Shown in pieces: positions 1,738 through 61,507 of a stretch of 64,000 nt of DNA. Under the pieces are notes generated by a model, which was not told the origin of the DNA, did not search any database, and saw only the letters and a list, made by a program, of their open reading frames with translations. Numbering within the stretch: the stretch's first letter is position 1; every line of letters begins with the position of its first letter. The stretch lies in the IMG/VR virus record IMGVR_UViG_3300033489_000001, positions 126,023-190,022 of that record; one strand, given 5' to 3'. The DNA is from a virus (Duplodnaviria; Heunggongvirae; Uroviricota; Caudoviricetes). The translations under genes and the position numbers were made by a program.

Positions 1738-1968
1738 CTAATTCAACGTCTCATCATAGGGTATGTCAACCGTTACTTTGCCCTCATCACATAGCGTCTG
1801 TATAATCTCTTCGCAAGTTATCAACAATTTGCCTGCTTCATTATAATGTTTAGCTCCCTTTTCTAAATGCTCAATTACAGATCTAACAAGAAGTGCAGGG
1901 TCCTCTGGCAATTGCTTGATTTGGACAGTCATAAAAATACCCACCTCTTCACTTGTGAAAACACTCAT
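1738..1968 (-). CDS. hypothetical protein
   Basis: 76 aa ORF in minus-strand operon. Confidence 0.45.
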   Translation of the reverse strand: MSVFTSEEVGIFMTVQIKQLPEDPALLVRSVIEHLEKGAKHYNEAGKLLITCEEIIQTLCDEGKVTVDIPYDETLN

Positions 1969-3397
1969 AGGCTTTCATAACACTCTCAACAGTTGCCTCA
2001 ACGGGCATACGTTCATCCGTATAACTATCTCTGCCCGCTTGGTCAGTCACGGCATCAATATACATGCCATGCGTTCCCTCAGTACGTCGGAGGAGGCGCT
2101 CATCAAAAACACCTTCAGGAACGCTCTTGGCTAAAGCCGTGTCAATGCCAACCCACCAAGCCTTCTTTACTAAGGGAGCCCAAACATCTACGTTGCTTTG
2201 AATAGGCGTCACCGGAGGCACATAACTAGACCCCCTACCGGATTCTTTATATCCAAGTAAAGTAAGCTTGATGCCTTCGTCATTACATAAATTGAGAATA
2301 GCTACGAACTCTTCGTCAGTAGCCGAACGCATTACATATTGTATACTGGCTAGCCCAAAAAATTCCGGCCGCGTTTTTTGTGATAGTTGATTAATCTCGT
2401 AGATGAAGTTCTTGACTTGCCCGACGTTATTGACAGAGTAAGCAAACCCGTGGTGATTCTTCACAATTAAATCAACGTGCTCAAAAAGCCACTTGAAATT
2501 CCGCGTGCTAAAATTGATCTTGAGGTCTACGTACCATTCTGCACTATGTTGAAGTATTCGCTCAAAATCAGGATGAAGAGTGGGCTCCCCACCGCCAATA
2601 GCAACTTCAAAAACTTGCATAAATTTAAGAGTCAACAACCATTGATCTACATTTACAGCGTGATCTCCTTGTAAACTGCTCCCCTGATAACAGAAGGCAC
2701 ATTCATATGGGCACCAGTCAGTGATTTTTAGATCAACCAACTCTGGCGAGTTGGCATAAAGTCTAGGCTTTGCATCATCTTTAAACGTCAGGGTTATCTT
2801 CTTCCCCGTGTGGGTATTAAACAGAACCCACCAATGCCCCTCTTGACGGCAAATCCATTCTTTATCGCTCACATCTTTCGGGATTTGAGAATACCAAAGA
2901 GGAGACTCAGTGCCTCCTAGATAAGCTCTCTGATAATCTTCACCTGAACCCTGATCATTTCCGCCAAGAATGACCACGTCATCCCGCAAAACGTAGTCCA
3001 ACATGTCTATGAAGAATTCCGGTGGAAATACTTTAGAGCCGTACCATCGGGGTATCAAAGGAACGGATTGGTGATCTATGTAACCTAAAGGCACATCTGC
3101 TATATGCACGTCAGCGGGTGTAACCTGAGCGATCATTGCTTCCATGGTGTGCTTATCATAATCGATCGGATCTTTTGTACCTAATATTCGTCCCGCAATC
3201 ACAGCCTTCATATAACTCAACTTGGCTGCCTTACTTGCCGCAATAAAAGGTTCCCACCCAAACTCACCCTCTTCGCATAAGTAGTCACTAGCAGGCTTCC
3301 AGCCAGGCTGGCGCATAGCGTTAGGTTGATAAACCACCACGCTATGCGTCGAACTGCTGTTGCAGGCAAACCCGTAACGTAAATTTGTTATTTTCAT
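1949..3397 (-). CDS. radical SAM domain protein
   Basis: 482 aa; CPYECAFCYQG (CxxxCxxC) cluster and GGGEPTLHP glycine-rich motif; N-terminal ~220 aa domain of unknown function. Confidence 0.8.
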   Translation of the reverse strand: MKITNLRYGFACNSSSTHSVVVYQPNAMRQPGWKPASDYLCEEGEFGWEPFIAASKAAKLSYMKAVIAGRILGTKDPIDYDKHTMEAMIAQVTPADVHIADVPLGYIDHQSVPLIPRWYGSKVFPPEFFIDMLDYVLRDDVVILGGNDQGSGEDYQRAYLGGTESPLWYSQIPKDVSDKEWICRQEGHWWVLFNTHTGKKITLTFKDDAKPRLYANSPELVDLKITDWCPYECAFCYQGSSLQGDHAVNVDQWLLTLKFMQVFEVAIGGGEPTLHPDFERILQHSAEWYVDLKINFSTRNFKWLFEHVDLIVKNHHGFAYSVNNVGQVKNFIYEINQLSQKTRPEFFGLASIQYVMRSATDEEFVAILNLCNDEGIKLTLLGYKESGRGSSYVPPVTPIQSNVDVWAPLVKKAWWVGIDTALAKSVPEGVFDERLLRRTEGTHGMYIDAVTDQAGRDSYTDERMPVEATVESVMKAYECFHK

Positions 3398-17527: not shown

Positions 17528-17561
17528 TTGAATTATTCTTTCCCCCGGTGTAGTAATAGTT
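17528..17561 (+). promoter_or_regulatory. M1 promoter motif (plus orientation)
   Basis: TTGAATTATTCTTTCCCCCGGTGTAGTAATAGTT then ATG 17562. Confidence 0.7.
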
Positions 17562-20268: not shown

Positions 20269-20342
20269 ATCTATTACTACACTGAAAACCGAGAAAATTC
20301 AAGATCAAAAACTTGAATTATTCCCTTCTCCGGTGTAGTAAT
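20269..20342. promoter_or_regulatory. back-to-back divergent M1 promoter pair
   Basis: -35 elements form the inverted repeat ATTCAAGATCAAAAACTTGAAT; minus-side ATG 20268; plus side has no gene for ~200 bp. Confidence 0.65.
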
Positions 20343-28844: not shown

Positions 28845-28881
28845 TTGAACTTCTCTTTTCTTCGGTGTAATAATAGGAGTT
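28845..28881 (+). promoter_or_regulatory. M1 promoter motif (variant TTGAAC / TAATAAT)
   Basis: Abuts ATG 28882. Confidence 0.55.
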
Positions 28882-44847: not shown

Positions 44848-45243
44848 ATGGTCAAGCGCGTATTAATCTGTGGATCGAGAAATTTTTCAAACAAGACAGT
44901 CATTGAAAACATTATGAAAGGCTTCCTCTCTGATACGGTCATCATTCAAGGTGGGGCTAGAGGAGCCGACGCTTTAGCTAAAGAGATAGCTAAAGCCCTT
45001 CACTTGACTTGCGTGGAGTATCCCGCTGATTGGGCTAAGCATGGCAAAGCTGCGGGGGCTATTCGTAACGCGCAAATGCTGAAGGAAGGCAAGCCTAATA
45101 TTGTCTACGCTTTTTATGAGGTTTATGGGAATAGCCCTGGCACGAGGGACATGGTAACTAAAGCTGAAAAAGCCAAGATTTGTGTCTACGAGTATTCCTC
45201 AGAGGGACCTATAAGCGTTAGCAATTCGGGGAGTGTCTTATGA
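44848..45243 (+). CDS. SLOG-superfamily (DUF2493/YpsA-like) protein
   Basis: 131 aa; ICGSRNF...VIIQGGARGADALA...HGKAAGAIRN pattern. Confidence 0.6.
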   Translation: MVKRVLICGSRNFSNKTVIENIMKGFLSDTVIIQGGARGADALAKEIAKALHLTCVEYPADWAKHGKAAGAIRNAQMLKEGKPNIVYAFYEVYGNSPGTRDMVTKAEKAKICVYEYSSEGPISVSNSGSVL

Positions 45244-47304: not shown

Positions 47305-47991
47305 TTGCCAAAAAATGATGTAGAAAATATAATTGGTGAATTGTCTTTAGCTTTTATTGATTCTTCTTTATATGTATTAGGCCTGAGAGATTCTTACACA
47401 TCTAGTCATTGTGCGAATGTAGGCATGATATCCGCGAAGATAGCCCAGAATATGGGACTTTCGGATGAGTTTTCTGAAGAGATAGCTCTAGCGGGTAGGG
47501 CTCACGATATTGGTAAGATTGTTTGGCCCGATCGTTGTTTTACGGATGCCAAATTAGAAGACCTTTGTGACTGTAAGCTTTTGATGGCAGAGCATCCAAC
47601 TTACAGCAAGGCTTATTTGTGTAAAGCTTTGGAGCCTTTGTATCGTGACAAATGCAAGCCTAGGTGGGTGCATTGGGTGTGGTTGCATCATTGGGGGTAC
47701 AGTGAAGAGTTTCATAAGAATCCAAAACCAAGCGATGTCACTTCTCAAGTACATTTGGATGAGGAGTTCGAGTTAGGTTTCTGTATACTTCATGTGGCAG
47801 ATGCTTTTCACGCGGGGACCTCTGTACGAAAGTATCGAGGTGCTGATCCAAAGGATGTTAGAGTTGTGTTAGATGAGTTGATAACCGGGAGTGGGACTAA
47901 TTACAACCCGGAAGTTGTCGCACAAATGCTAAAAATGGAGAAATGGTTAAACGGAGTATGTGATTACAACAACCGAGGTAGGGTATCATGA
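47305..47991 (+). CDS. HD-domain phosphohydrolase, HD-GYP-like with degenerate GYP motif
   Basis: 228 aa; H...GRAHDIGKI and HVADAFHAGTSVRKYRG resemble HD-GYP; WLHHWGYSE in place of HHExxDGxGYP. Confidence 0.6.
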   Translation: MPKNDVENIIGELSLAFIDSSLYVLGLRDSYTSSHCANVGMISAKIAQNMGLSDEFSEEIALAGRAHDIGKIVWPDRCFTDAKLEDLCDCKLLMAEHPTYSKAYLCKALEPLYRDKCKPRWVHWVWLHHWGYSEEFHKNPKPSDVTSQVHLDEEFELGFCILHVADAFHAGTSVRKYRGADPKDVRVVLDELITGSGTNYNPEVVAQMLKMEKWLNGVCDYNNRGRVS

Positions 47992-52692: not shown

Positions 52693-53211
52693 ATGACCAC
52701 AGAAACACAAACGAAAAAGACGAAAAATCGTAAAAGTCCATTTAAAGTTCTTACTAATAACCAACGTATTTTAGAGGAATTCAAGAAGAGATCACCGGAC
52801 GTCTGGTTTAATTTTGATGAGATAAACTCTTGGGCCTTTATCTCTGGCTTAAGTGCTGCTGTTAAGTCCGGTATTTTGCTCAAACTAACACAAGATGGTT
52901 TCCTTGAACGGAGAACAAAACTAAGGGGTATTGAGGGGCGGCACCCTTACGAGTACAGGTTCCGTAAAGGATCTATTCGGAATGCAAGCTATTACTTACG
53001 TCTACCTTATTCGCGAGTTTTTGTTCCAGAAGAATCTGGGGGTTTTTCTACAAGGATTTTAGAATTCCCTGGTTGTTTTTCTGAAGGCGAGACCTTAGAA
53101 GAAGCCTACAAGAATTTAGAGGAAGCAGCACGGTGCTGGTTGAATGCTTGCATTGCACAAGGTACTGCTATTCCTCTCCCCGGCATCCCCTGTTTTACTC
53201 GTATCCCCTAA
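52693..53211 (+). CDS. HicB-like (UPF0150) domain fusion protein
   Basis: 172 aa; C-terminal EFPGCFSEGETLEEAYKNLEEAARCWL typical of HicB antitoxin fold; basic N-terminal domain. Confidence 0.5.
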   Translation: MTTETQTKKTKNRKSPFKVLTNNQRILEEFKKRSPDVWFNFDEINSWAFISGLSAAVKSGILLKLTQDGFLERRTKLRGIEGRHPYEYRFRKGSIRNASYYLRLPYSRVFVPEESGGFSTRILEFPGCFSEGETLEEAYKNLEEAARCWLNACIAQGTAIPLPGIPCFTRIP

Positions 53212-53275
53212 TCCTTTAGGAAAAACAACATTCGTCTAATGTAAGCCCCTTTTATGGAGGAAAACGTATACCCTT

Positions 53276-53473
53276 ATGAGTCTATTGGACATACTAATAG
53301 TTTTAGTGATCGTGGGTGTAGTCCTGCATTTAGTTAATACGTATATACTCATGGCTCCTCAGATAAAAAAGATACTAAACTTTGTTGTTATACTCTTTGT
53401 ATGCTTATGGTTATTACAAGAGTTTGGGCTTCTCAATTCACTTGGAATCATTCACGTCGGGCAACATCGGTAG
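53276..53473 (+). CDS. small two-TM membrane protein
   Basis: 65 aa. Confidence 0.4.
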   Translation: MSLLDILIVLVIVGVVLHLVNTYILMAPQIKKILNFVVILFVCLWLLQEFGLLNSLGIIHVGQHR

Positions 53474-53620
53474 CGAAGTACGCTTTATAGAACGAGGCAA
53501 AAAAGTTTCCTCTTGACTTACTTCGCCCTTCTTGATACTCTTTTTGCTGGCTCTCAACGGTGAGCTTAAAAACTAAACGAGGTTGCGTTTGTAACCCAAC
53601 CTCGTAAAAAAGGAGTTCTT

Positions 53621-54244
53621 ATGTCAAACAATACCTCTATAACGGGGGAAATGTCTATTTTTGATTTTAGTTCGAATTTATCCATAAAGCCATCCTGTGT
53701 TTTGCAGGACAATTGTTGTCCAGAAAGAGTCTTTCACGATAAAAAAGTCAAAGATTTGCTAGACTGGACACCCACAAGCCTAGCCAAATTGAAAAATATG
53801 GGTAGAAAAAGTGTAAGAGAAATTCAAGAGGAATTGGCTAAGCATGGTTTGAAATTGAAAGAGGATCTTATTGAAGTAGTGGAACCCCCTCCTAAACAGT
53901 CAGCACAACTGCCCCCTATGCTCCAAAATGAAATGCTCTACGCCCTGACTTCGGCTGTTTTGAATGCTTTGGCGCTATCTGGCGAACCACAAATCTACAG
54001 CGACGTAGCCCCTATAATTGGCTACTACCATCGCGATCGAAACTTTCATATTCAGCTAGGGCGTTCTTTACGGGAAGATCATGCTAACGGCCGCCCTTTA
54101 CGGGCTTCTTTGGTTATAAACAAAGCCTTAGGTATGCCAGGTGATGCTTATTTTAAGGTGTGCCGGGAACTTGGCTATGTTATTCCGTCCGGAGATGAAG
54201 CTACATTTTGGGCCGAACAACTCAAGCGTCTTGAGAAAATTTGA
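53621..54244 (+). CDS. protein with RNA polymerase alpha-subunit C-terminal-domain-like HhH module
   Basis: 207 aa; VKDLLDWTPTSLAKLKNMGRKSVREIQEELAKHGLKL aligns with rpoA alpha-CTD (L..S.R..N.L...NLGKKSLTEIK..L...GL.L). Confidence 0.5.
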   Translation: MSNNTSITGEMSIFDFSSNLSIKPSCVLQDNCCPERVFHDKKVKDLLDWTPTSLAKLKNMGRKSVREIQEELAKHGLKLKEDLIEVVEPPPKQSAQLPPMLQNEMLYALTSAVLNALALSGEPQIYSDVAPIIGYYHRDRNFHIQLGRSLREDHANGRPLRASLVINKALGMPGDAYFKVCRELGYVIPSGDEATFWAEQLKRLEKI

Positions 54245-54252
54245 GTTTTGTC

Positions 54253-54300
54253 TTGAATTGTTTCTTTTGCCGGTGTAGTAATAGGGGGAAGAGGTAAAAG
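54253..54300 (+). promoter_or_regulatory. M1 promoter motif with Shine-Dalgarno leader
   Basis: TTGAATTGTTTCTTTTGCCGGTGTAGTAATAGGGGGAAGAGG. Confidence 0.65.
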
Positions 54301-55164
54301 ATGCACGTTCAACACGTGGTGTATGGTACCTTATCCGTAAATCTTGAGCCAGATATTACGGTTTTTGTCGGCCTTGAAGGCAAGACTCGGCTTTTAAGGG
54401 GTATCCATGAAGCTGTCCAAAGCCCTGACAAAAAAGTGTGGAACTGGGGAGAAATAAAACCAGAAAATCCTGACGTTTTGAAGCCCTTACTGCTTGACGT
54501 TGATCGCGCTAGGGACACTGGTTTCTATAATGAAAAATCGTTGAACTATTTACAACAGGCTGTTGCTAAAGCTGGCTTCCAACGGGGGCTTACGTTTTTT
54601 CCCACAGAGGAAGGAGTTAAGGTAGCCTTCAACGCATCCGAAGACGGGCAAGCACACTTACGGGTTATTTTCACAAGAATTGCCGAACATCTGTTCTCAT
54701 TGTTTGGAGACCAAAATCCGTTAGATGGTTACGCCCTTGTTCTCATCAATGAACTCGAGCTGTTGTTGCATCCCAAATTTCAATACAACCTTTTACCAAA
54801 ACTCAAGACCACTTTTCCAAAAGTTCAGTTTGTAGTTTCAACTAACTCGCCTTTGATTATATCCACCGTAGACGCTCGTTGTTTGAGGATTATAGAAGAT
54901 GAGAAGGTCTATTCTGTTGGTAGGTACACCTATGGACGTGACGCTAATTCTTTGCTGATTGAGGTTTTTGGTGCTCCAAATAGACCCGTAGAGATTGAGA
55001 AAAAGATTGACAACATTTCTCGGCTTATTGACAGAAATAAGTTAGAGGAGGCCAAGAAAGGCTTAGCCGAGTTGGAATCTATAGTTGGGCCTCACGACTC
55101 GGAAGTCTTGCGTATTAATACGCTTCTGCATTTTCTCGAAGACGATGGAGAATCACAAACATGA
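54301..55164 (+). CDS. AAA_21/ABC-type ATPase-like protein with degenerate Walker A/B
   Basis: 287 aa; C-terminal LVLINELELLLHP...QFVVSTNSPLII matches the AAA_21 signature (ilLiDEPE..LHP...QfiiTTHSP) but has N for D; N-terminal P-loop reduced to VGLEGKT. Confidence 0.6.
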   Translation: MHVQHVVYGTLSVNLEPDITVFVGLEGKTRLLRGIHEAVQSPDKKVWNWGEIKPENPDVLKPLLLDVDRARDTGFYNEKSLNYLQQAVAKAGFQRGLTFFPTEEGVKVAFNASEDGQAHLRVIFTRIAEHLFSLFGDQNPLDGYALVLINELELLLHPKFQYNLLPKLKTTFPKVQFVVSTNSPLIISTVDARCLRIIEDEKVYSVGRYTYGRDANSLLIEVFGAPNRPVEIEKKIDNISRLIDRNKLEEAKKGLAELESIVGPHDSEVLRINTLLHFLEDDGESQT

Positions 55165-55448
55165 GCGGCGGGCATTACGATTATGCACACGGCTATGTCA
55201 GTGACATGGCGGAGACTGTAGAAAAAGAGGCCAGTCACCATGTGGTGTGGGATGTTGGTGCATCTGGAAAAGAGAGCCTAGAGCCTCGTTCTCCTGAGGA
55301 AACAAAAGACCGCCTAGAGATGGCCGAAACATTAAAACGGGCTGCTGAGGCTATGCGGGCGTTGGAATGGTACGATTCCGGAGACAGTGGGGATTGGGAA
55401 GCCGTGAAGGCTGCTTTCAGGCACCTTACCTGTCCGGTCAAAAGTTAG
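55161..55448 (+). CDS. hypothetical acidic protein
   Basis: 95 aa; ATGA overlap suggests translational coupling with the ATPase-like gene. Confidence 0.45.
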   Translation: MSGGHYDYAHGYVSDMAETVEKEASHHVVWDVGASGKESLEPRSPEETKDRLEMAETLKRAAEAMRALEWYDSGDSGDWEAVKAAFRHLTCPVKS

Positions 55449-55706
55449 ATGGAGACTTTATTGACAATATTACGCTATATAGGACAAGGAGTACAAAACA
55501 TATTCCTGTTTCTACTGTTTTGGACTTTTCTGATTGATGTGGTGGGTATAGTTGTAGCTTTCTGCTTCAATAAGACTAAGCCTCCAGCGTTACTTGTTAA
55601 AGTGATGAGTACTTCTGTTATGGCCTTGGCATTATTTGGCTGTTTGTGCATCTTTTTCCATTTAGAGGGTATAGCCAAGTGGTAGTCTTAAACAGGTGAG
55701 CTTGCG

Positions 55707-56096
55707 TTGCGAGATATGAAACCCAACGTTTTATTAGTTGAGCGGCTCCGTCCCATGTGGGATCCGATGGAAGCTATCGGTTTCACACCGGACCTCTCAC
55801 AGATCGAACAGGTGGAACCCTTGCTGATGTTTCGTGAGCGACGTGGTCCTGTATACCATAGGAGACGCATCCGATACTTCATGGATTGCTTACGTAGGGG
55901 TCAAGAATTGGAACCCATTAATGTAGACAATTTTTGCGAAGGCGGATGTATCTATCCAACGCCGATTGTACTTGACGGAAACCATCGCTTCATAGCAGTG
56001 ATCCTTATGAAACAAGAAACGATTGAAGCTGACTATGGGGGCCGCGTTGACTTGTTACGTTACTTGGAAGGTAAGCGTAGAAATCCCCCTCTATAA
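55707..56096 (+). CDS. ParB/Sulfiredoxin-like nuclease-fold domain protein
   Basis: 129 aa; IVLDGNHRFIA matches the ParB-N DGxHR motif. Confidence 0.5.
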   Translation: MRDMKPNVLLVERLRPMWDPMEAIGFTPDLSQIEQVEPLLMFRERRGPVYHRRRIRYFMDCLRRGQELEPINVDNFCEGGCIYPTPIVLDGNHRFIAVILMKQETIEADYGGRVDLLRYLEGKRRNPPL

Positions 56097-56119
56097 GTTG
56101 AGGGAAAGGAGTGTAAAAG

Positions 56120-56470
56120 GTGTCTGATTGCATTTTACTTGAGCAAGATGGTATTGTTAATCTTGATTTTAGTGGAAAGAGTATTGTACTCGAAATACCA
56201 AGAGCGGAGCTGGTCGAGGGAAAGGTCTTTGACAAGTCTAATCCCACATACGATGAGACAATAAGGCTGTGGGTATCAGGCGATAGAATCTACGTTCTGC
56301 ATCTATTCGGTCATGACAGGGCATGGCCAAATACTGTGTATGAATTTCCTCTTGAGCAACCACCTAAACCAACGTATGGCTCAGCGCTAACTCAACCACT
56401 ATGCTGTACCCAACTTTGTGCTTGGCTAGCTCAAGGAAAAGGGATCCCTTCTGCGGCTAAGGAACAATAG
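56120..56470 (+). CDS. hypothetical protein
   Basis: 116 aa. Confidence 0.45.
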   Translation: MSDCILLEQDGIVNLDFSGKSIVLEIPRAELVEGKVFDKSNPTYDETIRLWVSGDRIYVLHLFGHDRAWPNTVYEFPLEQPPKPTYGSALTQPLCCTQLCAWLAQGKGIPSAAKEQ

Positions 56471-56830
56471 AAAAATGACAACAAAGCTATTAATCTACGT
56501 AGTGGTGCCAATACTTTGTGGGGCATTATATATCGTAGTTATGTTTCATTTGGGATACTAAAAGAGTCAGGAAGGGTATGCCAAAGCGTAATAAAAAACT
56601 GCCTCCACTCCCTGAAACAATTCCTACGGCTCTCTTATCCGATCCGGAGTTCCGGATTCGGGTCAAACGGCGGGTAGGACCTTCTTTCGGGGAATGGTTA
56701 GTTGTAGAAGACGTGTTGAATGCAACGTTGATTGTATTGAGAACAGCTCCCCCTAGATAAACCTGACCCATGGGCTCCAAAAAAGTAAGAAATGAGTTGT
56801 GATGATTAACCCAGTTCATATCGATTTAAC

Positions 56831-56864
56831 TTGAATTTTTCTCTTTTCCGGTGTAGTAATAAGT
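56831..56864 (+). promoter_or_regulatory. M1 promoter motif
   Basis: Abuts ATG 56865 (DUF262 gene). Confidence 0.7.
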
Positions 56865-57398
56865 ATGGGAAAGTTCACTTACGAGTCTATTGATAGATTT
56901 CCACAAGCCCATTACGAAATTGATTTGGATTGGGACTACTTAGAGGAATGGTTAGAAAGCCAAAAGAATACCAGGATACCTGAAAGTGGGATTGACCTTG
57001 ACCCTGATTTTCAGCGGGCTCACGTTTGGACACCGGAGCAACAAGTAAGTTACGTGGAGTTTATCCTTCGTGGGGGAGAGTCGGGCCGGGTGCTTTATTG
57101 GAACCACCCAAACTGGCAAGGAAGCTTCAAAGGCTATCTTACCTTAGTTGACGGAAAACAGCGCCTGGAGGCTGTAAGGGCGTTTCTGCGGAACGAAATT
57201 CCTGCTTTCGGTAGTCTACTAAAAGACATGGAGTCAAGATTTTTAAGAAAAACTGGTTCTGGTTTCAAAATGCGGATCGCTAGGCTCAAAACTCGTAAGG
57301 ACGTTCTGAACTGGTACCTCATGATCAACTCCGGCGGAACGCCGCATACCTCGGAAGAGTTAGATCGCGTGCGGGAGCTACTGAAAAAAGAAGCGTAA
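56865..57398 (+). CDS. DUF262 (GmrSD N-terminal, ParB-like NTPase/nuclease superfamily) stand-alone domain protein
   Basis: 177 aa; DLDPDFQRAHVW...ILRGG...LVDGKQRLEA matches the DUF262 DxxPxYQR / (I/V)DGQQR motifs; no DUF1524/HNH partner; ATG abuts promoter motif. Confidence 0.65.
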   Translation: MGKFTYESIDRFPQAHYEIDLDWDYLEEWLESQKNTRIPESGIDLDPDFQRAHVWTPEQQVSYVEFILRGGESGRVLYWNHPNWQGSFKGYLTLVDGKQRLEAVRAFLRNEIPAFGSLLKDMESRFLRKTGSGFKMRIARLKTRKDVLNWYLMINSGGTPHTSEELDRVRELLKKEA

Positions 57399-57402
57399 AA
57401 AT

Positions 57403-57588
57403 ATGAAAATCACCGATGAGAAAGATCTGAAAATCATCCGAGAGGCTTTGATTCAATATTCCCGGACAATGGAAGTAAAAGAAAGAACAAGCACCCCAAA
57501 AGAGAAGAAAGAGTGTGAGGAAACAGGCAGCCGCATCGAAAATCTATTAGCGGAAATCCATTTTGCTTTCTCTGGCAGAAAACCGTAA
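57403..57588 (+). CDS. hypothetical protein
   Basis: 61 aa. Confidence 0.35.
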   Translation: MKITDEKDLKIIREALIQYSRTMEVKERTSTPKEKKECEETGSRIENLLAEIHFAFSGRKP

Positions 57589-57618
57589 AGGAGAGGGTTT
57601 ACAACCTCAAACCGGCAT

Positions 57619-57765
57619 ATGAAAACGTCCAAATCAGTCAAGCCCCCTAGTCCTTGTACTAAGTGTGGGCTCGCCAAGAATAAGAGCCAATGTGCCCTTT
57701 ATAAGAACGGCGATTGCTGGTTCCAAACCGAAGATTCTGACCATAGCCCTAAAGGGAAAGATTAA
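57619..57765 (+). CDS. tiny Zn-ribbon protein (48 aa, below ORF-track cutoff)
   Basis: Manually translated: MKTSKSVKPPSPCTKCGLAKNKSQCALYKNGDCW... Confidence 0.3.
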   Translation: MKTSKSVKPPSPCTKCGLAKNKSQCALYKNGDCWFQTEDSDHSPKGKD

Positions 57766-57927
57766 ATGGCTAGAAAACTAAAAGAGGAAAGAGGATGTGA
57801 AACGTGTGGCGAACAGACAAGTTTTATCTATGTCTGCCACCGCTGTGGCAGAGAGGGATGTGATAATTGTATGCCAGGAGGCACCGGGGTTATGTGCCCA
57901 AAATGTGAAGAAGCGGAAGAAGACTGA
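57766..57927 (+). CDS. tiny Zn-ribbon protein (53 aa, below ORF-track cutoff)
   Basis: Manually translated: MARKLKEERGCETCGEQTSFIYVCHRCGREGCDNCMPGGTGVMCPKCEEAEED; starts on the codon after the previous stop. Confidence 0.35.
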   Translation: MARKLKEERGCETCGEQTSFIYVCHRCGREGCDNCMPGGTGVMCPKCEEAEED

Positions 57928-57960
57928 GTGGGCTTAGCTAAGAAATCTTTCGCAAAATCT

Positions 57961-57993
57961 TGAATTAATTCCTTCCCCGGTGTAGTAATAGTT
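57961..57993 (+). promoter_or_regulatory. M1 promoter motif
   Basis: Abuts ATG 57994. Confidence 0.7.
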
Positions 57994-58758
57994 ATGGAAA
58001 ACAATCTTAAAGCCACCATCCAAGACCTCATCCCGAAGCAACGTACGTTGAACGCGGCCGTTGAAAAAGGGGCTGCTCTAATTGAAGAACTTGAAGCGAA
58101 AATAGATGAGATAGTTAGAAAGAAACTTAGGACGGTCTACGCTACGGTTGACTATGGCGTCTTCTTTAAAATGGGTTTTCGTTCGGCAACTTGGCAACCC
58201 AAAGTGGAGATCAAGGGCGTCATTAATGGTGGCGGGATTTTCATCAAGGTACAGGGGCAATGGGTGTACCATATGGGGCATGAGGCCTATGGTAAAATCT
58301 ATCCTCACAGAATACGAAATAGGGCTATTCTTTTTGAGGTGCAAAAGCTTGAAGCGGCTTGCGCTGAACTAACTGAAGAGTTAGGTATCCCGGTTGTTAT
58401 CCAAGATCATGGGCTGGCGGAAGTGAAAGAGGACGAGTTGCGTACGGTGGATGACCTCCTGGTAAAGCATACCCACGGTAAAGTATTGGCCCAAGGAAAA
58501 GTTTGGTATACTGGATGGGACATAGCGGATGAGTGGGTCTTACTTCAAGATGAGGTGGGCATTCACGTCTACTTCAGCACCAACGGCCATGGATTTGGGT
58601 TTGACAGTTATGTGGCCCCCGGTGAAGATCTAACCGCCTTTGCGGACTTCCTACAACAAGAAAATAATAAGTTTCCGTCCGAGATCAAGAATCATCTGTT
58701 GACCTCGGAAGAACGTGGGCATACAACATTCTGCAAAGCGCTTTCATCCGATGGATAA
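57994..58758 (+). CDS. hypothetical protein
   Basis: 254 aa; ATG abuts promoter motif. Confidence 0.6.
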   Translation: MENNLKATIQDLIPKQRTLNAAVEKGAALIEELEAKIDEIVRKKLRTVYATVDYGVFFKMGFRSATWQPKVEIKGVINGGGIFIKVQGQWVYHMGHEAYGKIYPHRIRNRAILFEVQKLEAACAELTEELGIPVVIQDHGLAEVKEDELRTVDDLLVKHTHGKVLAQGKVWYTGWDIADEWVLLQDEVGIHVYFSTNGHGFGFDSYVAPGEDLTAFADFLQQENNKFPSEIKNHLLTSEERGHTTFCKALSSDG

Positions 58759-59200
58759 AGTTACACTCAGCCGATATACCCTATGGTTGGCCAGTTTTGA
58801 TAAGTGGTGCCGATCTTGGAACATAGATAGAAAGACTGGCCTTATTGTACTGGAAATTATCAGCAAGCTAGATGACGAGGGGCTCAGTCTTTTAAAATGG
58901 ACTGAGGTTCTTGTTTACCTTGAGCACCTCAAAAAAGACGAGCAATACGCAAGGAGAGACGAGGGGGCCGAAGTGAACACAGAGGGGGACTTTCAAAAAG
59001 GTGACCATCTCCGGGTTATGAAAGCCGTTCCTAAAGCGCCGGGTATAAGAGCACTAAAAGAGGGGGAGATAGTTGAATTTGTCCAATACTCTTCTGAGGA
59101 CAAGCAAATATCCCTGGTTGATTGTGAAACAGAGGATAGTGAATTGGCATTCACTTCTAAATATGTACCCACAGAATCCTTGGAGAAAGTTGTGGAATGA
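58715..59200 (+). CDS. hypothetical protein
   Basis: 161 aa. Confidence 0.45.
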   Translation: MGIQHSAKRFHPMDKVTLSRYTLWLASFDKWCRSWNIDRKTGLIVLEIISKLDDEGLSLLKWTEVLVYLEHLKKDEQYARRDEGAEVNTEGDFQKGDHLRVMKAVPKAPGIRALKEGEIVEFVQYSSEDKQISLVDCETEDSELAFTSKYVPTESLEKVVE

Positions 59201-59661
59201 AGAAAGAGTCAAACCCAAACTTCCCTATAGGGTCCCGCGTGGAACTAAAGCCGCACCTTGACAGTTGGATGCGCGGTGACCGGTATGGAGACGTAATAGG
59301 TTACAGGCCCGAATTTATTCGAGTTAAACTAGATAAATCCAAAGAGACACGGCTTTTCAAAGAAGAGGACCTTACGCTGGTTCCGGAATCTATGCAAGGT
59401 TTATTGAGCGTATTGAATGAGATATCTGCTGCTGAAAAAACAGGGGTAGATGCTTTGATTAAAGGAGACATGGACACGTTCAGTTCCGTGAATCAAAGTA
59501 TGAAGGACTTCAACGAGCGAGGAGTTGAAGCTGTTCACGCGCTGCTTGTTGAGCATCCGGAGCTTAGGCCCAATGGGTACGTTCCGGTCCCACTTATTAA
59601 AGAAGGTGGGCTTACTTTGGAAGAGGAAAAGATCATAGCCAAGAAAAGGGTAACTTTGTGA
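59197..59661 (+). CDS. hypothetical protein
   Basis: 154 aa; 3' end carries the conserved GGTGGGCTTACTTTG element. Confidence 0.5.
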   Translation: MKKESNPNFPIGSRVELKPHLDSWMRGDRYGDVIGYRPEFIRVKLDKSKETRLFKEEDLTLVPESMQGLLSVLNEISAAEKTGVDALIKGDMDTFSSVNQSMKDFNERGVEAVHALLVEHPELRPNGYVPVPLIKEGGLTLEEEKIIAKKRVTL

Positions 59662-60443
59662 CCGTGACCCTACGAGAAAACTATATCCAAGCCTTGAAAA
59701 GGCTTCCTATCCTCCGTCCTACGCCGGATGATGTGGCTCAGTTTTGCCCTTATTTACCGAGAGATATCATCGAAAACTTTTTAGCCGAAGGAGGGTACCT
59801 AACTTGTCCCCCTCTCAGGGTTCAGGATGCATTTCAAATCATCTCTTATGACAAAGACACTGGATGGCTCAATTATAACTTTGCGAGCCGTTTACAAGAT
59901 AGCTGGCTTCAAGCGTATGATAAAGAAGCTGTCAAGTTTGCAAATGATTATTGGCCAGCGGAGTTGATCGAAGACAATTGGGATGATATCCTTACCCTTT
60001 CTATTCAAGATCCTACTGACCTAAATCAGAACGGGAGCCCCAAAACAAAAACAAATCTCTATGTCTGTTTCAATCGTCCTTTTGGGGCCTTGATGGCTGA
60101 TTTGACTGAGCCTACAAGCGTGTTGATGGACAAAGCTATATGTGTAATGTCTCTTGATTCGTTTGTATACCGGGAACTCAAAGGGAGTCGGGGAGGGTAT
60201 GCTGATAACTGTTGCGCTTATTGTGGGCATGGTCTTAGTTTGGACGGGTGCCGTGGCTGCGGGCATAAGTTTACGGACAATGGAACTCGACACGGTTGGG
60301 GTACGCCCCTCTCACAAATGATGGTTGGCTTTCTTCAAGAACATGGCTTTACATTTAAACAAGGCCCAGAGATTGCCTGGAAACTCGAGGCAGAAAAATA
60401 TAAGGAACAAATAGAGAGAATAACCGCACGGATTGAGCTATAG
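59658..60443 (+). CDS. hypothetical protein with C-terminal Cys cluster
   Basis: 261 aa; CCAYCGHGLSLDGCRGCGHKF. Confidence 0.55.
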   Translation: MTVTLRENYIQALKRLPILRPTPDDVAQFCPYLPRDIIENFLAEGGYLTCPPLRVQDAFQIISYDKDTGWLNYNFASRLQDSWLQAYDKEAVKFANDYWPAELIEDNWDDILTLSIQDPTDLNQNGSPKTKTNLYVCFNRPFGALMADLTEPTSVLMDKAICVMSLDSFVYRELKGSRGGYADNCCAYCGHGLSLDGCRGCGHKFTDNGTRHGWGTPLSQMMVGFLQEHGFTFKQGPEIAWKLEAEKYKEQIERITARIEL

Positions 60444-60898
60444 GGGTTTTACATAGCAAAAGCTTACACGTCCCACACAATAAGGAGGTGGGTTTACTTT
60501 GATAGCATTGCAGAATCCAAGTGGTTAGCCTCTGTTCTGGAGAAAGTGTAAATTTTCCAATCACTGACTGAAAATTTCTTTTGAACGAAAGATAGCACAT
60601 GAAATACAAAATATGGATCGAAGGTTATAGGGCCACCGGAGGTCCCGCTCATTAAGTAGGCGGGTTTACTTTGAGTTCTTTATCTTATCGCTACTGTAGT
60701 TGATCAAATCAAGATGGGAATGGAGTCTAAGAATCATGACTTTTAATCATAGCCTGATCCTAGAGCAACCGTCTATGCTGTGCCTATCCCCCCTAGGCGC
60801 TCGGATGTGTGTAGCTCGATTGGGCTATGATTCAAGATCATGAGCCAATTTTCCAATCATTGATGGGAGACTTAGGACTATAACTGAGCAGAAAGCCA

Positions 60899-61507
60899 AT
60901 GAAACCGTTAGTGCAGCAATACCTTTTACTCAAAAAGAATTACGTGGACTATTACATTTTGGTTACTTGGCCAAAAAAGTTTATAGTAAAGAAAGATGGG
61001 GACATAGAACCTGTACCTAAAGTGCTTACTCCAAAACAACAGAAAATTCTAGATACCTCAAATGAAGCCATGGATTTCTTAGCTTCTAAGATGTCGTGTG
61101 AAGAAAGGTATCTTGCTGGCATTCCTAGAGGAGTTTATATGAGGGCGGAAGCTAAAGCATTACTCAAAGAATTACTTTGTCACCATAGAGTAGTAACCAA
61201 GCAAGACCCCCTTGAAAAAAATCTCATCATATCCCAGTACTTGATTTTTTATGGTGTGCTCTGTTCTAGAATTGGAGCACCTTGGTTGACACTTAGAATT
61301 GGCTCATTCTTGATGGAAATAGCTGAATGGTGTGCTGCAATGGGTTATCCGGCATTGAATGCTCTAGCGGTAAATCATGAAACAGGTTATCCTGATAGTA
61401 GTTATGATGGAGCCGGGGGATTTAAACTAAAGGATTGGGACAAAGAAGTTGAAAGGGTCATTCGGTTCACAAGCTATCCGATTGATCCTCCAGAAACAAT
61501 CAAGTAG
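60899..61507 (+). CDS. hypothetical protein
   Basis: 202 aa. Confidence 0.5.
   Translation: MKPLVQQYLLLKKNYVDYYILVTWPKKFIVKKDGDIEPVPKVLTPKQQKILDTSNEAMDFLASKMSCEERYLAGIPRGVYMRAEAKALLKELLCHHRVVTKQDPLEKNLIISQYLIFYGVLCSRIGAPWLTLRIGSFLMEIAEWCAAMGYPALNALAVNHETGYPDSSYDGAGGFKLKDWDKEVERVIRFTSYPIDPPETIK

Follow-up and report, generated by a model that had tools for sequence, protein, structure and literature searches.

A PtuA-derived pseudo-ATPase, candidate decoy of Septu or type I-A retron immunity, in a predicted early gene block of a putative huge phage

Genes of the interval and the element that carries them

The stretch of DNA analyzed here (the window: 64,000 nucleotides of the IMG/VR virus record IMGVR_UViG_3300033489_000001) comes from a metagenomic contig of 411 kb (ENA ERZ27256988 k141_5351839). 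Within it, the interval 53621-57398 contains gene B, which encodes a shortened derivative of PtuA, the ATPase of the Septu and type I-A retron defense systems, and which is the main subject of this work. An earlier note on the window had described four adjacent plus-strand genes in this interval (A, B, E and G) and had considered that their products might form either a new nucleic-acid-targeting system or a set of anti-defense decoys. The four open reading frames (ORFs) and their coordinates are correct, but gene calls on the source contig place eight plus-strand genes in the interval (Table 1). They belong to a longer plus-strand, co-directional block of small and tightly packed genes that extends from 52693 to 61507.

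The standard genetic code yields a coherent gene set for the window, which rules out an alternative code as the origin of the many short ORFs. There are no tRNA genes in the window, and the region 53000-58000 has no DNA similarity to any of 50,697 phage records. Of the 82 other window ORFs with a length of 90 aa or more, only about 12 have a PHROG match and about 6 a Pfam match; the families are phosphoesterase, methyltransferase, radical SAM, SPFH, R2K ATP-grasp, YAcAr SLOG and HD, and no housekeeping gene is among the matches. Because family matches are so few, housekeeping genes are lacking among them and the best relatives of G lie in large viral contigs, we treat the element as a huge phage. 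This status is only inferred, since no structural phage gene is found within the 64 kb of the window.

Table 1. Genes and promoter-like motif copies in and next to the interval
Feature	Position	Strand	Description
Gene A	53621-54244	+	207 aa; N-terminal module like the helix-hairpin-helix (HhH) of the RpoA alpha C-terminal domain (CTD), about residues 28-83; orphan C-terminal domain of about 120 aa
Motif copy upstream of B	54253-54282	+	Promoter-like; one of 22 copies; conserved in L006, a related contig, ahead of the B homologue
Gene B	54301-55164	+	287 aa; derivative of PtuA (Septu / retron type I-A ATPase)
Gene C	55161-55448	+	95 aa; acidic, predicted helical; ATGA overlap with B; small phage family phrog_6724
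Gene D	55449-55685	+	78 aa; hydrophobic, with two putative membrane helices; not present in L006
Gene E	55716-56096	+	126 aa, counted from an ATG 9 nt into the listed ORF, which opens with TTG; stand-alone ParB/Srx fold with DG(N/W)HR motif
Gene F	56120-56470	+	116 aa; dN/dS 0.35 against L006
60-aa gene	56578-56760	+	Gene call between F and G
Motif copy upstream of G	56831-56860	+	Promoter-like; ends 4 nt before the ATG of G
Gene G	56865-57398	+	177 aa; stand-alone DUF262 (GmrSD_N); phrog_1583 family
Motif copy	57960-57989	+	Promoter-like; start of the next transcription unit, with a 254-aa gene at 57994

Gene B encodes a shortened homologue of PtuA

B is a homologue of the PtuA ATPase of Septu and type I-A retrons. 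It matches the PtuA models of PADLOC (2.3e-44, residues 123-284) and of NCBIfam (1.2e-32, residues 103-276, with 113.5 bits against an equivalog cutoff of 500), and a phmmer search of the PDB returned only PtuA chains, those of Septu and of the retrons Ec78/Eco7 and Ec83, down to 1.8e-19. The protein had been assigned to the AAA_21-type ATPases with degenerate motifs. The degeneracy was confirmed in register, but AAA_21 and AAA_15 are sub-threshold matches in Pfam that cover the last 50 profile positions (21.7 against 27 for AAA_21), and the real family is PtuA. An AlphaFold2 model of B built from 68 sequences reached a mean predicted local distance difference test score (pLDDT) of 87.3 and a predicted template modeling score of 0.82. 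All of its top 50 Foldseek matches in the PDB are PtuA chains, with best template modeling (TM) scores of 0.70-0.75 normalized to B, and the viral structures of BFVD gave only generic ABC folds at TM <0.5.

The ABC/Rad50-like head is common to B and the PtuA proteins of Septu (PDB 8EE4/8EEA) and of the type I-A retrons Ec78/Eco7 and Ec83 (e.g. 9NNB, 9KJX, 9E8Z), and the lobe from signature to H-loop, the linker and the three-helix CTD (B residues ~100-284) are 30-47% identical. PtuA proteins are 380-550 aa long, whereas B has 287 aa and lacks their coiled-coil/helical insert, so that its architecture is that of a compact ABC-type head with disabled motifs, followed by an intact linker and the three-helix domain. 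A search of 1.84 billion cluster representatives yielded 7,548 relatives, just one of which is a near relative: P0002, encoded on a 2.4-kb contig, with 88% identity. The others have 380-460 aa and align at 30-47% identity over the ~100-284 portion only. No more relatives were found in IMG/VR, nor in JGI metagenomes with a profile of B and P0002. The best match in species-representative genomes is 41% identical over partial length, and the matches come from diverse phyla that give no clue to the host.

The ATPase motifs are lost and the C-terminal module is kept

We judged the motif columns of B against 90 full-length PtuA homologues in an alignment of 93 sequences. The P-loop reads GLEGKT in place of GxNGxGK[ST] and is two residues shorter, with loss of the Walker A Asn (N26-equivalent) that is present in 100% of the 90 homologues. 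It had been pointed out that a Walker motif intact in a different register would contradict the degeneracy of B; we looked for one and found no G-x4-GK[ST] in any other register of the protein. A single four-sequence MAFFT run did place the B segment ITVFVGLEGKT on an internal strand, an arrangement we rejected because HMMER, the 93-sequence alignment and the beta-beta-beta-loop-helix topology of the model all give the P-loop register. The Walker B motif reads VLINE where the family has VLIDE, the Asp (99% in the family) being replaced by Asn150 while Glu151 is retained. In the segment VLINELELLLHP, which spans Walker B and the position of the family's ELHLHP, the first His (99% in the family) is Leu155 and the second His is kept. 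Finally, the H-loop is STNSP instead of STHSP or TTHSP, with Asn182 in place of a His found in 100% of the family, and the signature is SEDGQ instead of LSxGE, with loss of a Ser (S114) conserved at 98%. In the set of the 154 nearest cluster representatives, no protein other than B and its close relative shows all of these losses together. In retron-Eco7 PtuA, N95 and E396 of one protomer are bonded to H400/H402 of the other, the replacements N95A, E396A, H400A and E396Q abolish defense, and D395A causes the complex to dissociate (PMC12673091). B has lost the Asn and the His of this cross-protomer contact.

A central region of at least ~130 aa is also missing. Nothing in B corresponds to residues 48-178 of the homologue P0003, which connect the P-loop helix with the signature lobe, and the coiled-coil domain falls within this gap; in the model of B, residues 41-62 form only low-confidence loops. 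It is the coiled-coil domain that joins PtuA dimers through PtuA-PtuA contacts (PMC12673091). The C-terminal part of the protein has fared differently. Its three helices (residues 230-244, 248-262 and 267-285) are modeled with a pLDDT of ~93-98 through residue 280, and B matches all 13 of the linker and CTD columns conserved at ≥80%, as compared to 30 of 48 conserved columns in the ATPase core, a share below the family minimum of 75% (Fisher p = 0.0066); a further nine conserved columns of the ATPase part have been deleted. In solved complexes, the three-helix CTD of PtuA sandwiches the PtuB CTD (PMC12673091), and in a nine-helix bundle a pair of PtuA C-terminal extensions clamps one PtuB (PMC12819146).

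Compared with its relative in L006, B has a dN/dS of 0.17 at a dS of 0.37, and the N-terminal 110 codons, with 0.13, are no exception. Purifying selection acts on the gene, and B is not a pseudogene in decay. It could be imagined that the phage once carried a Septu or retron I-A cassette of which B is a functionless leftover, and the deletions and motif losses of B, as well as the existence of phages with complete cassettes, would fit such an origin; Vibrio phage PE001 (PQ189325.1), unlike the locus described here, has adjacent genes for a reverse transcriptase, an ATPase of 541 aa and PtuB. However, the low dN/dS in all three segments of the gene, the intact ORF, the conservation of start codon and dedicated promoter in both known copies and the selective and perfect preservation of the C-terminal module make a mere remnant very improbable.

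A recurrent promoter-like motif precedes B and G

A 30-nt motif, TTGAAT-N12-CGGTGTAGTAAT, was first spotted by eye in intergenic regions and then confirmed by counting: the window has 22 copies for 0.06 expected. All are oriented as the local genes, with sites from 1226-1255 to 20273-20302 on the minus strand and from 17528-17557 to 28845-28874 on the plus strand, in addition to the three plus-strand sites at 54253, 56831 and 57960. A generic sigma-70 scan gave no plus-strand site and missed every copy of the motif. We nevertheless predict that it is a strong sigma-70-like promoter of the early type which drives the accessory block. Thirteen copies are followed by exactly 4 bases and then ATG, which suggests that the corresponding mRNAs are leaderless, and the G transcript is probably among them. 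The copy in front of B, by comparison, is followed by an 18-nt leader with a GGGGGAAGAGG Shine–Dalgarno-like stretch before the ATG.

That each of the four flagged genes has its own promoter thus holds for B and G. Upstream of A there is only a weak TTGACT-17-TACTCT, and E, located 30 nt behind D, has no promoter motif of its own. The positions of the motif imply a first putative transcription unit composed of B, C, D, E and F, possibly with the 60-aa gene, a second one with G and the three tiny genes downstream of it (61, 48 and 53 aa), and then the next block.

Genes E and G belong to intact phage families

The earlier note had presented the set as catalytically degenerate, which is true of B only. 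E and G are not degenerate: each represents a large phage family, and the signature motifs of both are intact and do not vary within these families.

The family to which E belongs is unnamed and comprises at least 259 small proteins. Within the DGNHR motif of E, D87, H90 and R91 are invariant in 52 aligned relatives; the same 52 members contain no Pfam domain, E itself has no ParBc match and finds no PDB chain by sequence, and its match to phrog_1033 is at 3e-3. The ParB/Srx fold attributed to it is supported by the AlphaFold2 model (pLDDT 94.2): every one of the top 50 Foldseek matches in the PDB is a member of the ParB/Srx group (Noc, sulfiredoxin, ParB, PadC, KorB, SbnI, SerK, Osa), albeit at modest TM-scores of 0.37-0.54 (best E 8.8e-3, probability 0.99). 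E thus shares the core fold of the superfamily that includes the N-domains of ParB and Noc, sulfiredoxin, PadC, KorB, SbnI and Osa, with its DGxHR-type motif at the nucleotide-binding loop. In contrast to the ParB partition proteins it consists of the core only, with neither helix-turn-helix (HTH) nor dimerization domain. No ParA-like gene is present among the window ORFs, and the association with partition or replication genes that had been considered for the ParB-like genes was not observed. The alignment of the E family with the short-DUF262 family by hhalign places DGNHR on DGKQR in register, with an E-value of 2.3e-4 and a probability of 45%.

G is, as had been noted, a DUF262 protein with no DUF1524 (Pfam GmrSD_N/DUF262, PF03235: 1.1e-11, 45.7 bits against a gathering score of 33.2). 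Its motifs QR..VW, DGKQR and N..GG (residues 50-55, 96-100 and 155-158) are intact, and most of their positions are invariant or nearly so in 35 relatives. It also matches phrog_1583 (3e-25) and PADLOC NsnA (1.3e-9), and the profile of its family matches BrxU-type DUF262 structures at 3e-5. In GmrSD, BrxU and SspE the DUF262 is joined to DUF1524/HNH or another effector domain, while G is DUF262 only. Members of the family are encoded by 278 deposited phage genomes, among them those of cultured T4-like Krischvirus phages, and at 46 IMG/VR loci; the best relatives of G are encoded by viral contigs of 300-620 kb and by the 485-kb 'uncultured phage' LR745208.1. Short DUF262 proteins of known phages, such as ORF187 of Escherichia phage Phi1 and ORF165 of Ralstonia phage RP13, are 28-50% identical to G and have the DG(K/Q)QR and other motifs in common with it. 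G, and less certainly E, is therefore a member of a phage family already on record, and most likely both bind or hydrolyze nucleotides for a purpose that serves the phage itself.

Two observations on G relatives may be recorded here. In Phi1 (L148 2388-3953), ORF187 lies in the early host-takeover region, two genes downstream of the DNA methyltransferase ORF189 and upstream of an Alt-like ADP-ribosyltransferase, which would make it a tractable model for the short DUF262 family. In LR745208.1 (L011 5932-7317), two DUF262 paralogues of 191 aa and 269 aa are arranged in tandem, the second with an N-terminal extension of ~100 aa.

No conserved neighborhood links the genes of the interval

For the neighbors of G, we clustered 1,819 ORFs from 48 loci (46 from IMG/VR and two from phage records, L010 and L011) together with those of a 13-kb stretch of the window. 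Across the 48 loci there is no shared neighbor family beyond antisense artefacts, and a hidden Markov model of the E family applied to the G loci found E near G only in the window and in L010 (MT835469.1). Conversely, among the E-family loci sampled, E is directly followed by G in two gut-phage contigs (L063 4001-5037 and L065 4001-5038) and not in four others (L060, L061, L062 and L064). In L063 and L065 the E homologue directly precedes a DUF262 protein of 176-177 aa, and in L010 (4796-6414) it does so after two small genes. The order of the pair in these three contigs is that of the window, despite 36-41% identity. The B-C-E-F synteny was found only in L006, which is 12% diverged. The link between E and G is thus weak and non-obligate, and neither gene is linked to A or B. 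Since nothing is conserved in the neighborhood besides the occasional E-G adjacency, the interval is not a single system.

It follows that the proposal of all four flagged genes forming one new nucleic-acid-targeting or defense system has been largely refuted by the survey and is hardly tenable. The genes are co-directional and tightly packed, and their domain families recur in defense systems, as such a proposal would have it. However, A has no relatives and B has one close relative, the G loci share no neighbor family and none of the 46 from IMG/VR has an E homologue, G opens its own transcription unit, and neither a DUF1524 nor an HNH nuclease partner was found in the window. What remains is an instructive negative result: the co-location of ParB-like, DUF262 and AAA_21-like proteins does not amount to a system here.

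A narrower possibility is that E and G are the functional core, a ParB/Srx-type nucleotide-binding pair acting in DNA metabolism, in DNA modification or as an NTP-gated clamp, with B as an unrelated neighbor. The recurrence of the E-G order in distant gut-phage contigs (MT835469.1, and directly adjacent in L063 and L065), the invariant motifs of both families, the tandem paralogues of LR745208.1 and the methyltransferase gene near Phi1 ORF187 would all be compatible with such a pair. On the other hand, the pairing is not obligate, being absent from L060, L061/L062, L064 and all of the 46 IMG/VR G loci; neither protein has the HTH DNA-binding domain of a true ParB, and there is no ParA. On balance we are inclined to doubt this explanation, without regarding it as far-fetched.

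B as a candidate dominant-negative decoy

The interpretation we tentatively prefer to the others is that the interval represents an early accessory gene block and not one system, and that it contains, in B, a PtuA-derived pseudo-ATPase that is a candidate dominant-negative decoy against Septu or retron I-A. We hold this to be possible, if somewhat short of an even chance. A decoy role is well motivated because B has selectively lost ATPase and dimer residues that proved essential in mutants of retron-Eco7 PtuA (PMC12673091), while the PtuB-binding module is kept and the gene is under purifying selection and has a promoter motif of its own. In line with this, phmmer found no PtuB homologue in any ORF of the window (64 kb of the 411-kb contig), and none turned up among the window ORFs scanned against PADLOC. 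Unlike the known PtuA systems, B has no adjacent PtuB, reverse transcriptase or non-coding RNA and sits in a phage-like genome behind an early-type promoter. The idea of anti-defense decoys put forward in the earlier note can accordingly be retained for B; it does not apply to E and G, which represent intact and widespread phage families.

The proposed mechanism would be the following. Early in infection B would be produced from its own strong early-type promoter and would bind host PtuB via the retained C-terminal module, or alternatively cap PtuA:PtuB assemblies through the same module. It should be unable to form either the nucleotide-stabilized head-to-head dimer or the higher-order assembly mediated by the coiled-coil domain. 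As these would be needed for defense, B could act as a dominant-negative and disarm Septu or retron I-A immunity. The stronger claim that such a dead mini-PtuA, titrating PtuB or capping PtuA-PtuB via its C-terminal clamp, is the first phage inhibitor of Septu or type I-A retron immunity to be derived from the ATPase subunit of the defense system itself is one we regard as rather unlikely at this stage.

Several points weigh against a decoy. In the solved complexes PtuB is sandwiched by the two CTDs of a PtuA dimer, and a non-dimerizing B might be a weak binder. Nucleotide binding by B also remains conceivable, because the P-loop still has its Lys-Thr and Walker B its Glu. Its closest full-length relative, P0006 (L058 144-2601), already has Asn in the H-loop with intact Walker A and B motifs, and genes for a small membrane protein and a UvrD-like helicase lie downstream of it instead of PtuB; P0006 may belong to a PtuA-like lineage working without PtuB, and because of its H-loop Asn and non-PtuB neighbors the lineage of B may likewise have left the partnership with PtuB before it was truncated. 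Furthermore, not all short forms are dead, as P0005 (L007 2809-3645), a PtuA-like protein of 278 aa, has an intact Walker A. The clade of B comprises two sequences that are 88% identical, which makes the tests of conservation shallow. It is also true that we infer the decoy role, the PtuB binding and the anti-defense activity of B, and that the search for PtuB covers only 64 kb of the 411-kb contig.

P0005 deserves a remark of its own. Its Walker B ends in DD rather than DE, its H-loop has Asn and there is no HNH neighbor; it is encoded by an AT-rich, phage-like contig and represents a second, independent short form.

B might instead be the non-catalytic scaffold or regulator of a module owned by the phage and composed of B, C, D, E and F, in which E, for example, would be an effector replacing the HNH protein PtuB, and which would serve in competition between phages or in host takeover. 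The genes B, C, E and F are found behind one promoter motif with none in between, their order is the same in L006, and some ParB/Srx proteins such as Osa, which has the best TM-score to E (0.54), are nucleases. However, L006 is only ~12% diverged and its synteny is little informative, none of the six sampled loci of the E family, with its at least 259 proteins, has a PtuA-like neighbor, C occurs without B in another phage contig, and the model of E has no helical domain resembling the PtuB CTD that is bound by PtuA. Such a module therefore appears distinctly unlikely.

The factors described so far that counteract Septu or type I-A retrons are phage tRNA-Tyr, Rad, Anhur and Svarog (PMC11555353, PMC13096335, 10.1101/2024.06.14.598830); for Anhur and Svarog, direct contact with Septu proteins has not been reported (10.1101/2025.06.06.658234). 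If the decoy idea is right, B would share its target system with these factors. Phage tRNA-Tyr acts differently, in that it replenishes the cleaved tRNA. We found no published report of a PtuA-derived inhibitor in the literature. The structures of Septu and of the retrons that carry PtuAB are by now well understood. As known phage escapes from them rely on replenishment of tRNA-Tyr or on proteins of unknown mechanism, a dominant-negative derived from a subunit would constitute a new route of counter-defense, and B, as a minimal PtuB-binding module made by nature, would help to establish how PtuB is restrained or licensed by PtuA. The hypothesis rests on computation and two sequences, but it is specific and can be tested cheaply in the existing E. 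coli Septu and Ec78 assays. It also suggests a search strategy, namely to look for phage homologues of defense proteins in which the catalytic columns have decayed while one interface is perfectly conserved.

Other genes of the interval and further observations

A does contain the alpha-CTD-like HhH module that had been ascribed to it. It matches the Pfam RNA_pol_A_CTD profile (PF03118) above cutoff (29.9 bits against 23.8, E 4.6e-7), although only over positions 34-66 of 67, and of the NCBIfam rpoA models only the C-terminal 40 residues match. The match to alpha-CTD chains in the PDB is at 2e-3, and phmmer aligns residues 28-80 to the E. coli alpha-CTD. R265 is the key UP-element contact of alpha. 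Aligning E. coli alpha 265-315 with A residues 28-83 shows that N268, C269, G296, K298 and S299 are kept; together with R265 these are what we take to be the '265 determinant' for UP-elements, five of whose six residues would thus be retained. In A, R265 is Leu, the alpha N-terminal domain is absent and the module is fused to the orphan domain, which has no relative in the PDB. A is thus predicted to be an orphan DNA-binding-type protein with an alpha-CTD-like HhH. No relatives were detected in phage records, IMG/VR or JGI metagenomes, the single IMG/VR match being a chance local match inside a giant fusion of RNA polymerase beta and beta'. The ORF in question, of at least 1,951 aa (L146 2-5857, on a 192-kb IMG/VR contig), appears to be a beta plus beta'-like fusion with an intein-like insertion and is an observation in its own right.

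The small acidic protein C had been viewed as a partner of B. The ATGA overlap of the two genes is real, but a partnership lacks support, as the C homologue P0157 is encoded by another phage-like contig with no PtuA-like neighbor. C shows no similarity to PtuB and has no match among PDB chains, and we rejected a role as a PtuB-CTD-like partner on account of this lack of similarity and the location of the homologue. Members of the C family (window 55161-55448; L008 8001-8369) have their ends in common, MSGGHYDY... and ...EAMRALEWYDSGDSGDWE. In P0157 a zinc-ribbon-like CxxC...CxxC insertion lies between these ends, and one source labels the protein RPC12/RpoP. F has no detectable relatives beyond L006 and no PDB match by sequence.

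Just upstream of the Shine–Dalgarno sequence and ATG of A there is an inverted repeat of 9 bp (ACGAGGTTG / CAACCTCGT) with an A-run behind it (53580-53611, plus strand). By the T-run rule it is not a terminator on either strand and may be a structure of the 5′ untranslated region.

At the start of the block, the plus-strand gene 52693-53211 encodes a HicB-like antitoxin domain (residues 106-165) with an N-terminal extension of ~100 aa and has no adjoining HicA gene. The protein could be an orphan antitoxin directed against toxin-antitoxin defenses. At a distance of ~3 kb, E or G homologues are accompanied by HicB-like genes in L063-L065 as well as in contigs of the LR745208.1 type (L011, L020 and L021).

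Elsewhere in the window, a YAcAr (SLOG-family) protein, an HD-domain protein and a radical-SAM protein are encoded at 44848-45243 and 47305-47991 on the plus strand and at 1949-3397 on the minus strand. Genes of these types handle nucleotide signals and are often tied to phage-host conflict, and the radical-SAM protein gives weak PADLOC matches of the prokaryotic-viperin-like kind.

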